Virus record (IMG/VR): IMGVR_UViG_3300020577_005931
Location: 190-64,189 of that record
DNA length: 64,000 bases
Strand: one strand, 5' to 3'
Origin: a virus
Lineage: Duplodnaviria; Caudoviricetes
Shown: piece after piece, positions 1 to 3,700 of the stretch
Layout: each line of letters starts with the position of its first letter
How positions within the stretch are numbered: position 1 is the stretch's first letter
Made by a program: the position numbers and the translations under genes
The notes under the pieces: model-generated
Databases searched by the model: none
What the model was told of the DNA's origin: nothing
Seen by the model: only the letters and a program-made list of their open reading frames with translations

Positions 1-486
1 CATGCAACCGGACACTTAAATGCTAAGAAAATGCCAATGAAAGCGCATGAGAACATTCTTGTTTTCTATCGCAGTTTGCCGACATACAACCCCCAGAAGA
101 CAACCGGACACATACGCAAAGCGGCTGTGAAGAGGCGTGATAGGACTGAGGTGTACGGAGAGCAGGTTTTTGATGAGCTGCCATACGATTCGACAGAGCG
201 ATACCCACGAAGCGTTCTGACATTTCCGAGTGATAAACAGAAGATTACTCTACACCCCACGCAAAAGCCCATCGCCCTGATGGAGTACCTGATCCGCACC
301 TACACCAATGAAGGTGATGTGGTGCTGGACAACTGCATGGGCAGCGGGACTACTGGTGTTGCCTGTGTAAATACTGGACGCGACTTCATTGGTATTGAGA
401 AAGAACAGCAATACTATGAGGCAGCAAGGAAACGCATTCTGGAGGCAGAGTGCGCTTTGATTGATGCAGCACAAGAACCGCTATAG
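1..486 (+). CDS. DNA adenine/N4-cytosine methyltransferase (beta class), 5' truncated by window edge
   Basis: HPTQKP and DNCMGSGTTG motifs; frame is open from base 1 (HATGHLNAKKMPMKAHE). Confidence 0.9.
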   Translation, partial: HATGHLNAKKMPMKAHENILVFYRSLPTYNPQKTTGHIRKAAVKRRDRTEVYGEQVFDELPYDSTERYPRSVLTFPSDKQKITLHPTQKPIALMEYLIRTYTNEGDVVLDNCMGSGTTGVACVNTGRDFIGIEKEQQYYEAARKRILEAECALIDAAQEPL

Positions 487-531
487 GGTGCGAGCACCTA
501 ACATCACTATTAACCTGAGAGATAAACAAAA

Positions 532-729
532 ATGACACCAGAACAATTTTGCTACTGGTTGTAAGGTAAGGCGGAGCTTGATTCTACACCGCCGGCACCG
601 GAGCAATGGGACTCGATCCGCGAGCATCTTGCGTTGGTATTCGTGAAGGTAACGCGGCCAGTATTTCCTACTGCACCCGGCCTCGTTAAGCCGGGTGTGC
701 TTGAGCCGCCGTTCACTATTATGTGCTGA
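532..729 (+). pseudogene. Small conserved-type phage protein (MTPEQFCYWL.G...EQW..IREHLALVFVKVT) interrupted by in-frame TAA
   Basis: ATG 532 with purine-rich upstream; TAA at 562-564 where Gln (CAA) is expected; frame continues to TGA 727-729. Confidence 0.7.
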
Positions 730-734
730 CTGGT

Positions 735-830
735 GCATAACGTGGAGCCAAGGGGAGAGCGAAATGAGCAAAGCGAATGAGGTAACAGGCTATGAGCGAA
801 GCGAATAGTCCAGCGAGCAAGGCGATCGGT
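735..830. repeat. Degenerate/chimeric attC-like element
   Basis: Starts GCATAAC-gtggagccaag; contains gaggtaacaggc and atgagcgaa blocks shared with the 1786 element; no GTTRRRY end. Confidence 0.55.
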
Positions 831-859
831 GTTCACCGATCCTTTCTGGAGGTATTGCA

Positions 860-1087
860 GTGAGAAGGGAACAGATAGTGGTCACCGATGAGTTGAGCCC
901 TCGCGAGAAGCAGGTGCTAGAAATGCTGAATGAAGGCAAGAGCCAGAAGGAGATTGCCTACTACCTGGGGCTTGATCAAAGCACGGTGTCAACGATCACC
1001 TACAGGATTCGGCAAAAGGCAAACAGGAAAGGGTTCAGGAGGATGGTTGTGTATATCAATAGTGAAGGCGAGATCTGGAGGGGCTGA
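860..1087 (+). CDS. LuxR/GerE-type HTH DNA-binding protein (no ligand domain)
   Basis: LSPREKQVLEMLNEGKSQKEIAYYLGLDQSTV; GGAGG RBS; GTG start. Confidence 0.85.
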   Translation: MRREQIVVTDELSPREKQVLEMLNEGKSQKEIAYYLGLDQSTVSTITYRIRQKANRKGFRRMVVYINSEGEIWRG

Positions 1088-1401
1088 TGGCATTTGCAGT
1101 TGTATGTGACGCCCGCAAGGGTGCAACGAGAGGGGTTCACCAACTGGTCTTGTGTGACCAGAAAATCTGTCCAGGTATTTACTGGACTTCCGACGACAAG
1201 CGACGGGTTCTTCGGTTCAGGAACCGGTCAGTAGCAGAGGAGACATGCAAGCGATTCAAGCACAACAAGTGCCGGGTGGTGCCCTACGAGGAGGCGCTGT
1301 CAATCCTGGCCCGGCAGTTCGATGCTATCCGTGGTTACAACGAACGGATGGGTGAAGTGGCTCACACAAGCGAGGTAGACGACGATGAGTTCAATCGGTA
1401 G
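1087..1401 (+). CDS. Hypothetical phage protein
   Basis: TGATG coupling to upstream gene; 104 aa. Confidence 0.7.
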   Translation: MAFAVVCDARKGATRGVHQLVLCDQKICPGIYWTSDDKRRVLRFRNRSVAEETCKRFKHNKCRVVPYEEALSILARQFDAIRGYNERMGEVAHTSEVDDDEFNR

Positions 1402-1470
1402 GAGACAAATGGAATTAAAGAGCAGACAGGGCTTTTGCGTGATGCGCTGCGCGAATATGCACAAGTTGAC

Positions 1471-1542
1471 GCATAACCAGTAGCTCACTGGCAGCCGAAG
1501 GCTGTCCAGCGCGTAGCGCGATTCTCCAGCGACTTGTTATGA
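1471..1542. repeat. attC-like recombination site
   Basis: GCATAAC ... GTTATGA ends, internal stems ggcagc/gctgtc and cgcg/cgcg; 72 bp. Confidence 0.75.
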
Positions 1543-1572
1543 ACCAGACGATTTAACTACAGAGGAAAAGGT

Positions 1573-1791
1573 ATGGAATGGCGAGAAATAGAAAACGATC
1601 ACCCTATAGATGGCGAGCCTGTATTGCTGTACGAGCCGCACGATATGCTCGCGCCGATTGAGCCTCCTTATGGTGGGTTCATGTTTGTAGGTGTTAAAAA
1701 TCTCGCAGGGGTTTGGTTGAATACCATGACGCTTGAGGAACAATTCCCAAGCCACTGGATGCCGCTACCGGCACCGCCGACTGGTGCATAA
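1573..1791 (+). CDS. DUF551-like phage protein (cassette ORF)
   Basis: WREIE..P.DG..VLL and PSHWMPLPAPP; stop TAA lies inside GCATAAC. Confidence 0.8.
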   Translation: MEWREIENDHPIDGEPVLLYEPHDMLAPIEPPYGGFMFVGVKNLAGVWLNTMTLEEQFPSHWMPLPAPPTGA

Positions 1792-1828
1792 CGATGGAGG
1801 TAACAGGCGAATGAGCGAATTGTTATCT
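1786..1828. repeat. Short (internally deleted) attC-like site
   Basis: GCATAAC ... GTTATCT, only 43 bp. Confidence 0.6.
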
Positions 1829-1852
1829 GACAAGCTGATTTAGGAGAATCAA

Positions 1853-2272
1853 ATGAAGGTTGTGATCAATAAATGTTTCGGCGGCTTCGGCCTGTCAGAG
1901 GCCGGAACCCGCGCCTACTGGGAGCGCAAGGGCAAGCAAGTTTTCGCCGTTGGAACCAGCTGGTTGTTAAAGTCCTACTTCGATGCTCCGCTACCGCCAG
2001 AGTTCGCATTGCCGGAAGGCGGGTTCTTTATGAAGAGCGATCATCCGGAGTACGAGAACTACAACAAGTGGTATTCGGCGCACTCGATGTACGACCGAGA
2101 TATTGAACGAAACGACCCCGATCTAGTAGCGGTGATTGAGTCGCTTGGCGAGGCGGCCAGCGGCGAATGTGCTGCGCTGGTCGTGGTCGAGATTCCTGAC
2201 GATGTCAATTGGGAGATAGCCGAGTACGTCGGCAATGAGCACGTCGCCGAGAAGCGCCGCACTTGGTCCTGA
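1853..2272 (+). CDS. Conserved-type phage hypothetical protein (cassette ORF)
   Basis: MKVVINKCFGGFGLS ... RNDPDLVAVIESLG ... VVEIPDDVNWEI; AGGAG RBS. Confidence 0.85.
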   Translation: MKVVINKCFGGFGLSEAGTRAYWERKGKQVFAVGTSWLLKSYFDAPLPPEFALPEGGFFMKSDHPEYENYNKWYSAHSMYDRDIERNDPDLVAVIESLGEAASGECAALVVVEIPDDVNWEIAEYVGNEHVAEKRRTWS

Positions 2273-2273
2273 C

Positions 2274-2348
2274 AGATAACCCTGCAATAAGCGGCAGGCG
2301 AAGCCTGTCCAGCGAATGAAATGAGCGGCCTTGATGGCCTTGTTATAA
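2274..2348. repeat. attC-like recombination site
   Basis: AGATAAC-cctgcaataag ... cttgatggcctt-GTTATAA; AAG/CTT L boxes with an extra base; 75 bp. Confidence 0.85.
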
Positions 2349-2372
2349 ACCAACGCAGCGAGGCAAGAATGC

Positions 2373-2639
2373 GTGAAAATCTACAAGTACCCACTGAAAG
2401 TAACCGACAAGCAAGTAGTGCTGATGCCGTTCGGCGCTGAGATACTTTGTGTTCAGATGCAGAACGGCGACCCTACCATCTGGGCAGCCGTCGATGAAAT
2501 GAACTCACTGGTTCCGAGAAACATAGCAATGGCTGGTACAGGCCATGAGCTTGGCGACATTTCCAAGTGGAAGTACATAGGCACTGTGCAAATGTACGAT
2601 GGCGCGCTGGTGTGGCACTGTTTCGATCTTGGTTTATAA
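2373..2639 (+). CDS. Conserved-type phage hypothetical protein (cassette ORF)
   Basis: MKIYKYPL ... GTGH ... YIGTVQ..G.LVWHCF; stop inside TTATAAC. Confidence 0.85.
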   Translation: MKIYKYPLKVTDKQVVLMPFGAEILCVQMQNGDPTIWAAVDEMNSLVPRNIAMAGTGHELGDISKWKYIGTVQMYDGALVWHCFDLGL

Positions 2640-2712
2640 CGCCTGAGCTAAGGTGCGCGCCGTCAGGCGCGTCAAACGAGCAGAGCGAGTGGCCTTGAGC
2701 GACGAGTTAGGT
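2634..2712. repeat. attC-like recombination site (best-preserved copy)
   Basis: TTATAAC-gcctga-gctaagg ... ccttgagc-gacga-GTTAGGT; 79 bp imperfect palindrome. Confidence 0.9.
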
Positions 2713-2735
2713 TTCAACCACTGGAGAATATACAA

Positions 2736-2972
2736 ATGAAGACAATGACTATTCCAGCCGACCCGCGCTGCGAAGGCAACAGCAGGGCGCTTGTAACAAA
2801 CGAAATGAAAGCTGAGCACATTGGCGAGTTTTCATGGAATGAGCAGGCTGACTACTACGACGAAAACGGCAAGCTGGTTGAGCACATTGCCACTCGCACA
2901 GTTCCTTGGGATCTGGTGAAAGAGATTTACAAGCGAATGGCGCACTCCGCGTCTTTGCAGGTTGGAACCTAA
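2736..2972 (+). CDS. Hypothetical phage protein (cassette ORF)
   Basis: GGAG RBS; stop TAA inside ACCTAAC. Confidence 0.75.
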   Translation: MKTMTIPADPRCEGNSRALVTNEMKAEHIGEFSWNEQADYYDENGKLVEHIATRTVPWDLVKEIYKRMAHSASLQVGT

Positions 2973-2985
2973 CATGGATTAGACA
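2967..2985. repeat. Half attC-like site (array boundary)
   Basis: ACCTAAC is the exact complement of GTTAGGT at 2706-2712; no partner arm downstream. Confidence 0.55.
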
Positions 2986-3015
2986 TCACCAGACGTAAAA
3001 CACGTAGGAGGAAGT

Positions 3016-3375
3016 ATGACAAAACACACACACCATGCCGAAGAAAATGGCATAGACAAGGCTATTGATGACGCACATATTAAAGTGGCTGAGTTGTACC
3101 TACAGCGCGATGAGTACAAGGCAAGATGTGATGAGCTGTCGGCTCTGACTGCGGGAATGGCGAAAATTATAGCCGTAATAGAACTTGATAAAGACGAGCC
3201 GTATCACCGCAGAGAATACGCCAAGGAATTGGCTGCTAGGGCTGAAGCCATAGCCAAGGCAAGGGGGGCGGCAGTTATGAACAGCCGTGAACAATTCGAG
3301 TCTTGGGCAGCAACAAAGCTACCCGCCAATACTGCCAGACCTACGGCGCACCTCGGCCGGGAGTTGGAGTTATGA
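3016..3375 (+). CDS. Hypothetical phage protein, possibly chimeric
   Basis: AGGAGG RBS; internal MNSREQFESWA looks like a second gene start. Confidence 0.65.
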   Translation: MTKHTHHAEENGIDKAIDDAHIKVAELYLQRDEYKARCDELSALTAGMAKIIAVIELDKDEPYHRREYAKELAARAEAIAKARGAAVMNSREQFESWAATKLPANTARPTAHLGRELEL

Positions 3376-3626
3376 GGCCACCCCCGCAGATATACCTGCA
3401 ATGGTACGGCGACGAAGACCCCAACTTCCTGGCCGAGTCGGAGAAGGAGAGCATTGACCCTAGCACTGGGGAAGTGTCCTGGTGGCTGGAGAAGATCCAC
3501 CCTCACGACATCGCCTACGTGCGGCGGGATTTATTCGAGGAGGTCACTGACGCATTTATCTTGCAGAACGACAGGCTGCGGGCAGAACTGGAGGAACTGC
3601 GCCGTCAACTGGAGCTTCTGAAGTGA
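3372..3626 (+). CDS. Hypothetical phage protein with C-terminal coiled coil
   Basis: ATGA overlap and GGAG RBS favour start 3372 over 3303. Confidence 0.7.
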   Translation: MRPPPQIYLQWYGDEDPNFLAESEKESIDPSTGEVSWWLEKIHPHDIAYVRRDLFEEVTDAFILQNDRLRAELEELRRQLELLK

Positions 3627-3645
3627 CCTACGACATTTGTCGTAC

Positions 3646-3674
3646 TTGCAATGTACTGTGAACAGTTGTACAAT
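3646..3674 (+). promoter_or_regulatory. Sigma70-like promoter of KTSC gene
   Basis: TTGCAA-17 bp-TACAAT. Confidence 0.75.
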
Positions 3675-3700
3675 GAACACCTATCAAAAAGGAGATTTTT

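Follow-up and report, generated by a model that had tools for sequence, protein, structure and literature searches.

The DNA between approximately positions 735 and 2973 of the analyzed window is likely a small, partly decayed integron-type array, which lacks an integrase on its contig, carries the bottom strand of its attC sites on the coding strand and would be moved by an integron integrase (IntI). As the bottom strand lies on the plus strand, each attC precedes, in the direction of transcription, the gene with which it travels, so that the order of a bacterial cassette is mirrored. The window, i.e., the whole stretch of 64,000 nucleotides that was analyzed, comprises nearly all of a 64,189-base IMG/VR virus record with a CheckV completeness of 76%. 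No near-identical deposited phage records were found for it, and a search with its 934-aa protein yielded no close relatives. Parts of the array region are present in wastewater and activated-sludge metagenomes, and the array is located among the early accessory genes of a wastewater phage.

According to the first-pass annotation, the canonical top strand of an attC site has a 5-nt spacer and an 8-nt L box with the extra base on its left. This rule was borne out by 80 genomic loci, which were collected with IntI1 of plasmid R100 as query and oriented by their integrase gene. With respect to the cassette-coding strand, the combination of 5-nt spacer and 8-nt L box occurred 81 times on the left versus 18 times on the right, and the 18 “bottom-like” matches were not attC-like by eye. 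Sites of the aadA type agree with the rule, and the attC-aadA7 bottom-strand primer printed by Qi et al. (2023; PMC9892861) reads box-6-7...8-5-box, which is the same order as found on the plus strand of the window. This order, with an extra G in the right arm, had been described for the site at 2634–2712, where it is indeed present. On the plus strand, this site consists of the box TTATAAC, the 6-nt GCCTGA, the 7-nt GCTAAGG, the centre, the 8-nt CCTTGAGC, the 5-nt GACGA and the box GTTAGGT. Read on the minus strand, the same elements are R″ ACCTAAC, the 5-nt TCGTC, L″ GCTCAAGG with a bulged C, the centre, L′ CCTTAGC, the 6-nt TCAGGC and R′ GTTATAA. The L boxes GCTCAAGG and CCTTAGC pair at seven of seven positions around the bulged C and between spacers of 5 and 6 nt, and a simple L-box test gave 7/7 in the “bottom” configuration. 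Regarding the core boxes (RYYYAAC/GTTRRRY) on the minus strand, ACCTAAC fits fully and GTTATAA keeps the GTT with two departures from RRRY; boxes of the GTTATGC type occur in real integron sites too. The stem is paired no further than the L box, an offset GC hairpin occupies the centre, and the attC shape is absent from the minimum-energy folds. Single-strand folding recovered this shape only for the palindrome at 1471–1542, with the other sites forming local hairpins.

Strand-specific scoring, which had been named as a check of the inverted polarity, placed the top strand of this site on the minus strand. The covariance model used for this (R1) was built from 36 non-redundant bacterial attC top strands, whose polarity was derived from the location of intI; the R and L pairs, which were set by hand, are kept in 92% of the alignment cells, with clear covariation. 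In a control with 30 integron loci, 37 of 40 matches were located on the cassette strand, and the three off-strand matches all came from one locus (L057), which belongs to a contig with two intI-like genes. In the R100 control, the annotated aadA1 gene and its attC were co-directional. R1 matched 2634–2712 with 35.8 bits and an E-value of 1.1e-6 on the minus strand alone (E-values of this ad hoc model being rough), and the next best match in the window reached 13 bits. The plus strand of the site gave no match, and 365 kb of unrelated phage DNA yielded nothing at E ≤ 1. A truncated attC of 43 nt at 1786–1828 scored 11.5 bits on the minus strand (E = 0.058 over 3.3 kb), and 1471–1542 scored 3.2 bits on the same strand, which is not significant.

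The polarity of the weaker sites emerges from their similarity to known ones. A comparison (blastn-short) of the five window sites with a library of 301 top-oriented attCs gave 133 matches in minus orientation versus four in plus orientation. The chimeric attC remnant at 735–845, which has the left box GCATAAC without a matching right box and showed no overall fold, contributed nine minus and no plus matches. The corresponding counts were 20 and two for 1471–1542, 40 and none for 1786–1828, five and none for 2274–2348, and 59 and two for the intact site at 2634–2712. As the library matches are almost exclusively in minus orientation, all five sites have one polarity, with the top strand on minus and the genes on plus. 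The palindrome at 1471–1542 is a degenerate attC-like structure with symmetric 5/5 spacers and no bulge, whose hairpin fold has a z-score of −3.2 and whose centre is shared with the degenerate attC at 2274–2348. For the latter, the first-pass annotation had proposed the extra-G structure as well. This structural claim is weak (5-bp L box, 6/6 spacers, R1 silent), whereas the polarity assigned to the site is supported by homology, as 41 nt of it match an attC of another phage contig (L084) at 88% in minus orientation (E = 3e-7) and R1 gives that attC 30.7 bits. L084 (4975–10155), a 92% complete phage contig, exhibits a helicase-methylase fusion followed by three attC sites of minus polarity. 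As one of these is the homolog of 2274–2348, the L084 architecture probably corresponds to that of the window's left end.

Clusters of attC sites lacking an integron integrase (CALINs) are recognized, as defined for IntegronFinder, by at least two attC sites within 4 kb on one strand, and the window offers one strong site, one of 11.5 bits and three degenerate ones, all five of which have the same polarity by similarity. No integron integrase is found nearby, a TIGR02249 search of the 64-kb record (76% complete) having yielded no match, and the window does not contain the intI, attI and Pc beside the array that make up a complete integron. As only one site is significant by the model and the others are truncated or degenerate, the array may be mostly fossil.

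The genes between these sites are real and are all on the plus strand. Imperfect palindromes ending in ..TAAC and GTTA.. separate them, and five plus-strand ORFs gave Pfam or PHROG matches. The window starts with a DNA methyltransferase gene (N6_N4_Mtase; 1–486; PF01555, 3e-26; phrog_67) that is truncated at the contig end, so that only its C-terminal part is present. Just past the methylase stop codon, at 498–504, there is another ACCTAAC box, which resembles the lone box at the array end (2967–2973). The remnant at 735–845 is followed by an ORF with a LuxR/GerE-type helix-turn-helix (860–1087; PF00196, 1.6e-12) and by a 104-aa ORF (1087–1401). Within the latter, relatives from three metagenome runs exhibit a diverged stretch of equal length, 182 nt (1199–1380), with near-identical flanks. 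Next come a DUF551 gene (1573–1791; PF04448, 2e-5), with its stop codon inside the left box GCATAAC of the truncated attC, a 139-aa phrog_16527 gene (1853–2272; 5e-29) and a DUF7352/phrog_3848 gene (2373–2639; PF24043, 4e-24), with its stop TAA inside the box TTATAAC. The last unit (2640–2972) is a phage-type cassette of 333 nt on the plus strand, composed of the intact attC and then a 78-aa ORF (2736–2972). The lone core box ACCTAAC at 2967–2973, which reads GTTAGGT on the minus strand, forms the array end, and beyond it are small ORFs and, at 3646, a site resembling a phage promoter. The only minus-strand ORF that was scanned (2059–2394, 111 aa) gave no Pfam or PHROG match. With the top strand on minus and real genes on plus, the attC bottom strand is the one that codes, and the canonical cassette layout, with a promoterless ORF on the attC top strand and the attC at its 3′ end, is not the one found here. 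Complementary box pairs (7/7 each) flank ORFs at 1822/2274, 2342/2634 and 2706/2967; the last pair is formed by GTTAGGT at 2706–2712 and the lone box.

Natural variants show that one of these units is gained or lost at its TAAC cores. Metagenome contigs of four runs were compared over positions 300–3700, with only the contig-covered parts being interpreted. One contig of run X1 joins 2636 to 2970, skipping 333 nt, with the four letters TAAC common to both sides, and is 99% alike on 2970–3114. Other X1 contigs stop at 2640 or continue into the attC and keep the unit. The presence of both kinds of contigs indicates that a single wastewater run holds phages with and without the unit 2640–2972. 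The joint depends on a single contig, whose short side measures 26 nt, and such joints can arise from repeats; in addition, the four-letter TAAC microhomology could also reflect slippage or illegitimate recombination. The end points of the gain or loss are the TAAC cores of the left attC box and of the lone box ACCTAAC, the latter being a joint and break point in runs X1 and X2. Near-identical relatives furthermore diverge directly past AAC at 1477 and 2280 and just ahead of TAAC at 2969. As AA|C, which corresponds to G|TT in the minus-strand R′ box, falls at the end points, these variants fit with the minus strand as top strand; were the plus strand the top strand, the end points would be expected at the right-hand GTT boxes. 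The claim that the canonical top strand is minus and the genes are on plus is thereby supported by three independent lines, namely R1 scores, library similarity and the gain/loss end points. Run X22 contains contigs with 8- to 10-fold greater depth that share only the attC interiors 2283–2331 and 2650–2710 and differ in their flanks. The same attC types therefore also occur elsewhere in this sample, in elements of higher abundance.

An extremely improbable reading is that ordinary intergenic hairpins (e.g., terminators or elements of RNA stability) resemble attC by chance and that their polarity is meaningless. Four of the five sites do fail R1, and for 172 of 222 viral sites the RNA fold of the bottom-strand version is somewhat more stable (mean difference 2.2 kcal/mol), which makes a role in mRNA conceivable. 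However, the 35.8 bits of the intact site stand against 13 bits for the best background match and nothing in the 365 kb of other phage DNA, the arm sequences are common to bacterial attCs, terminator-like matches on the plus strand (hairpin plus T tract) occur at none of the five attC-like sites, and the break points fall exactly at AAC cores. Rfam yielded no family match in the window, although it may not include an attC family. A crude scan for AAC...GTT boxes was rejected as too noisy. Among the library sites (301 sites, loci L003–L201), attC top strands are C-rich, with C fractions of 0.33–0.34 and G fractions of 0.27–0.28; the bottom strands are G-rich and as RNA are the more stable ones in 215 of the 268 distinct sites.

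The inversion recurs in other phages. At least 119 other IMG/VR contigs, some of them duplicate loci, matched one strict class-1-like attC pattern and were surveyed with a longest-ORF heuristic, in which the longest ORF per strand was taken in each inter-site interval. R1 gave 342 and 152 matches in the surveyed viral contigs, which form dense arrays, and the polarity of the attC sites was uniform in 57 of 58 viral loci. None of the 93 ORFs on the same strand as the attC sites matched Pfam or PHROGs. The 101 ORFs on the opposite strand yielded 11 Pfam and 48 PHROG families, which were mostly methylases (N6/N4 and C5) and further included HNH, Lar, DUF551, PAPS reductase, DHH, RNA ligase and queuine transferase. 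Methylases are the commonest type of cargo in the inverted phage arrays, with homologs in approximately 30 of the 119 attC-bearing viral loci, and another viral array also carries DUF551 as inverted cargo. Of 19 homologs of the window's methylase, 18 were antisense to the nearest attC, as were all 16 that lie within 2 kb of it. Hence, every gene of judgeable direction in the sampled phage contigs is inverted, with the exception of one of the 19 methylase homologs, which lies beyond 2 kb. The viral arrays have phage genes as neighbors (portal, terminase, tape measure, primase, RecE-like and DarB-like). In bacterial integron loci, the same ORF heuristic classified 26 of 33 cassettes as canonical, none as inverted and seven as ambiguous. 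The survey of ORF orientation in phage versus bacterial arrays, which the first-pass annotation had proposed, thus agrees with its reading. Its suggestion that host integrons could be a silent reservoir of phage genes found no support in these bacterial cassettes. GC3 was dropped as a universal test for the coding strand, as it fails near 50% GC, e.g., for aadA, and Pfam/PHROG tallies were used instead.

Such recurrence also bears on the idea that a piece of a bacterial array landed backwards by accident, in which case the plus-strand phage genes would be unrelated to the sites and the polarity would have no cause. This idea would fit with the missing integrase, the decayed sites and cargo families that are usually not cassette-borne: 51 viral loci with a homolog of phrog_16527 (48 loci) or DUF7352 contained no attC, which indicates that these two families are not generally carried on cassettes. 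Yet, one plus-strand phage gene fills each inter-site interval between complementary flanking boxes, the unit that is gained or lost consists of the attC and its downstream gene, and the inversion recurs in the sampled contigs (16:0 for the methylases, 0/93 for the same-strand ORFs) and in the Pseudoalteromonas phage PH101. As a single accident cannot explain this recurrence, a backward landing is very unlikely, and an integron-type array with inverted genes remains the preferred reading.

Phage CALINs as such are already known. They were described by Qi et al. (2023; PMC9892861) for the phages TJE1, PH101 and P12002L, often together with DNA methyltransferases, and they share with the window the integrase-less attC clusters in phage genomes. 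The individual cases differ in polarity. In TJE1 (L202, 244–1519), the three attC sites and the genes are all on the plus strand, which is canonical and unlike the window; it shows that canonical phage arrays exist too. In PH101 (Pseudoalteromonas phage H101, KR534323; L260, 2599–4667), R1 places four sites on the minus strand and all annotated CDSs are on plus, so that all four sites are antisense to the genes, as in the window. In agreement with this, the strand that Qi et al. cloned as bottom strand is the sense strand. A full-text search of the literature yielded no statement that phage attC arrays are systematically inverted, and the considered part of Qi et al. (PMC9892861) does not mention an inversion. 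The window is a further, decayed example of such inverted arrays, with unusually direct population evidence for cassette gain or loss.

Real inverted arrays could also be moved by other machinery, e.g., a phage RecE/RecT-type system or another tyrosine recombinase, with the attC fold being merely a shared target shape. RecE-like exonuclease genes are located a few kb from inverted arrays in three of ten viral loci that were checked (L157, 5690–7345; L168, 1816–3465; L164, 7424–9547), and most of the complete phage contigs that were checked have no IntI, both of which would fit with such machinery. The sites, however, fit a model that was built solely from IntI substrates. Moreover, one phage locus (L143, 698–5915) contains a true IntI beside such an array (TIGR02249 score of 428 bits, cut-off 265), with primase/helicase and neck genes nearby. 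Finally, Qi et al. (2023; PMC9892861) report that IntI1 recombined both of the PH101 sites that they tested, with the bottom strands recombining better; these sites are inverted by the R1 check. Movement by another recombinase is accordingly unlikely, and movement by IntI is the favored alternative. The IntI gene of L143 has the canonical relation to the attC sites, yet it lies downstream of, and co-directional with, the cassette genes and a C5 methylase. The cassette ORFs of this locus had no family matches, so that their strand assignment derives from the GC3 signature only. A 96% complete phage (L114) contains an IntI remnant in the same layout as L143, and IntI is absent from two other near-complete array-bearing phages.

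Compared with canonical integrons, both of class 1 and chromosomal ones (Thauera, Dechloromonas and other Rhodocyclaceae), the window has the same core boxes, spacers of 5 and 6 nt, L boxes of 8 and 7 nt and bulged base, the same arm sequences (GCTCAAG..CTTAGC, TCAGGC, GTTA) and likewise complementary boxes that flank genes. It differs in that its genes are on the bottom strand with the attC ahead of the gene, that intI, attI and Pc are lacking on its contig, that its sites are mostly decayed and that its cargo consists of phage accessory genes. Sedentary chromosomal integrons also hold inverted cassettes, such as toxin-antitoxin cassettes with their own promoters, as a minority within canonical arrays. 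In these, as in the window, the ORF and the attC top strand run in opposite directions. While they are a minority, all judgeable genes of the window and of the sampled phage arrays are inverted and would be read from phage promoters. A different kind of inversion is represented by the “inverted integron-integrase” integrons of Treponema and others, which are mentioned in PMC4889954. As in L143, intI points there with the array. However, intI is co-directional with the attC sites in the Treponema type, whereas L143 keeps the canonical relation between intI and attC and has its genes flipped instead.

How the units move and why their polarity is kept can be outlined as a model. The units would be moved by an integron integrase, which may be encoded by the host or, as with L143, by related phages. 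The polarity would be kept as phage promoters, and not Pc, drive transcription, which then runs toward the attI/intI end. With this polarity, the bottom strand would be the non-template strand and, if the genes run with the replication fork, probably also the lagging-strand template, where folding is possible. A location on the lagging strand favors attC folding and recombination (PMC5371416), and the idea that a replication-strand bias fixes the polarity, which the first-pass annotation had also raised, may hold, as it fits with these published folding data. The GC skew of the window's plus strand is positive, but neither this nor the RNA-folding results decide between the two proposed causes. 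Insertion of cassettes at G|TT is an established rule of integrons; by this rule, such genes, if inserted at the attI of a host, would lie antisense to Pc.

Integrons are defined by their fixed polarity, which allows captured genes to be transcribed from Pc. That many phage arrays have the opposite polarity, and some of them an integrase, suggests that phages use the same recombination chemistry with a different expression logic. On a more tentative note, and with less than even confidence, phages may keep an integron-type shuffling of their own, with mirror-image cassettes, intI at the downstream end of the operon, a polarity that is selected, and fast-shuffling, separate gene pools. If this were true, the recombinogenic strand would be exposed during both transcription and lagging-strand synthesis, so that phage arrays would shuffle fast, and cassettes swapped between phages and bacteria would be mutually silent, which would result in two pools, one of anti-restriction and one of defense genes. 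Integron finders that assign cassette genes by the attC strand would mis-assign the genes of phage arrays. The arrangement would explain the shuffling of methylases and other anti-restriction genes by phages, predicts an expression barrier between the phage and the bacterial cassette pools, and offers a natural test of how strand exposure controls attC folding.
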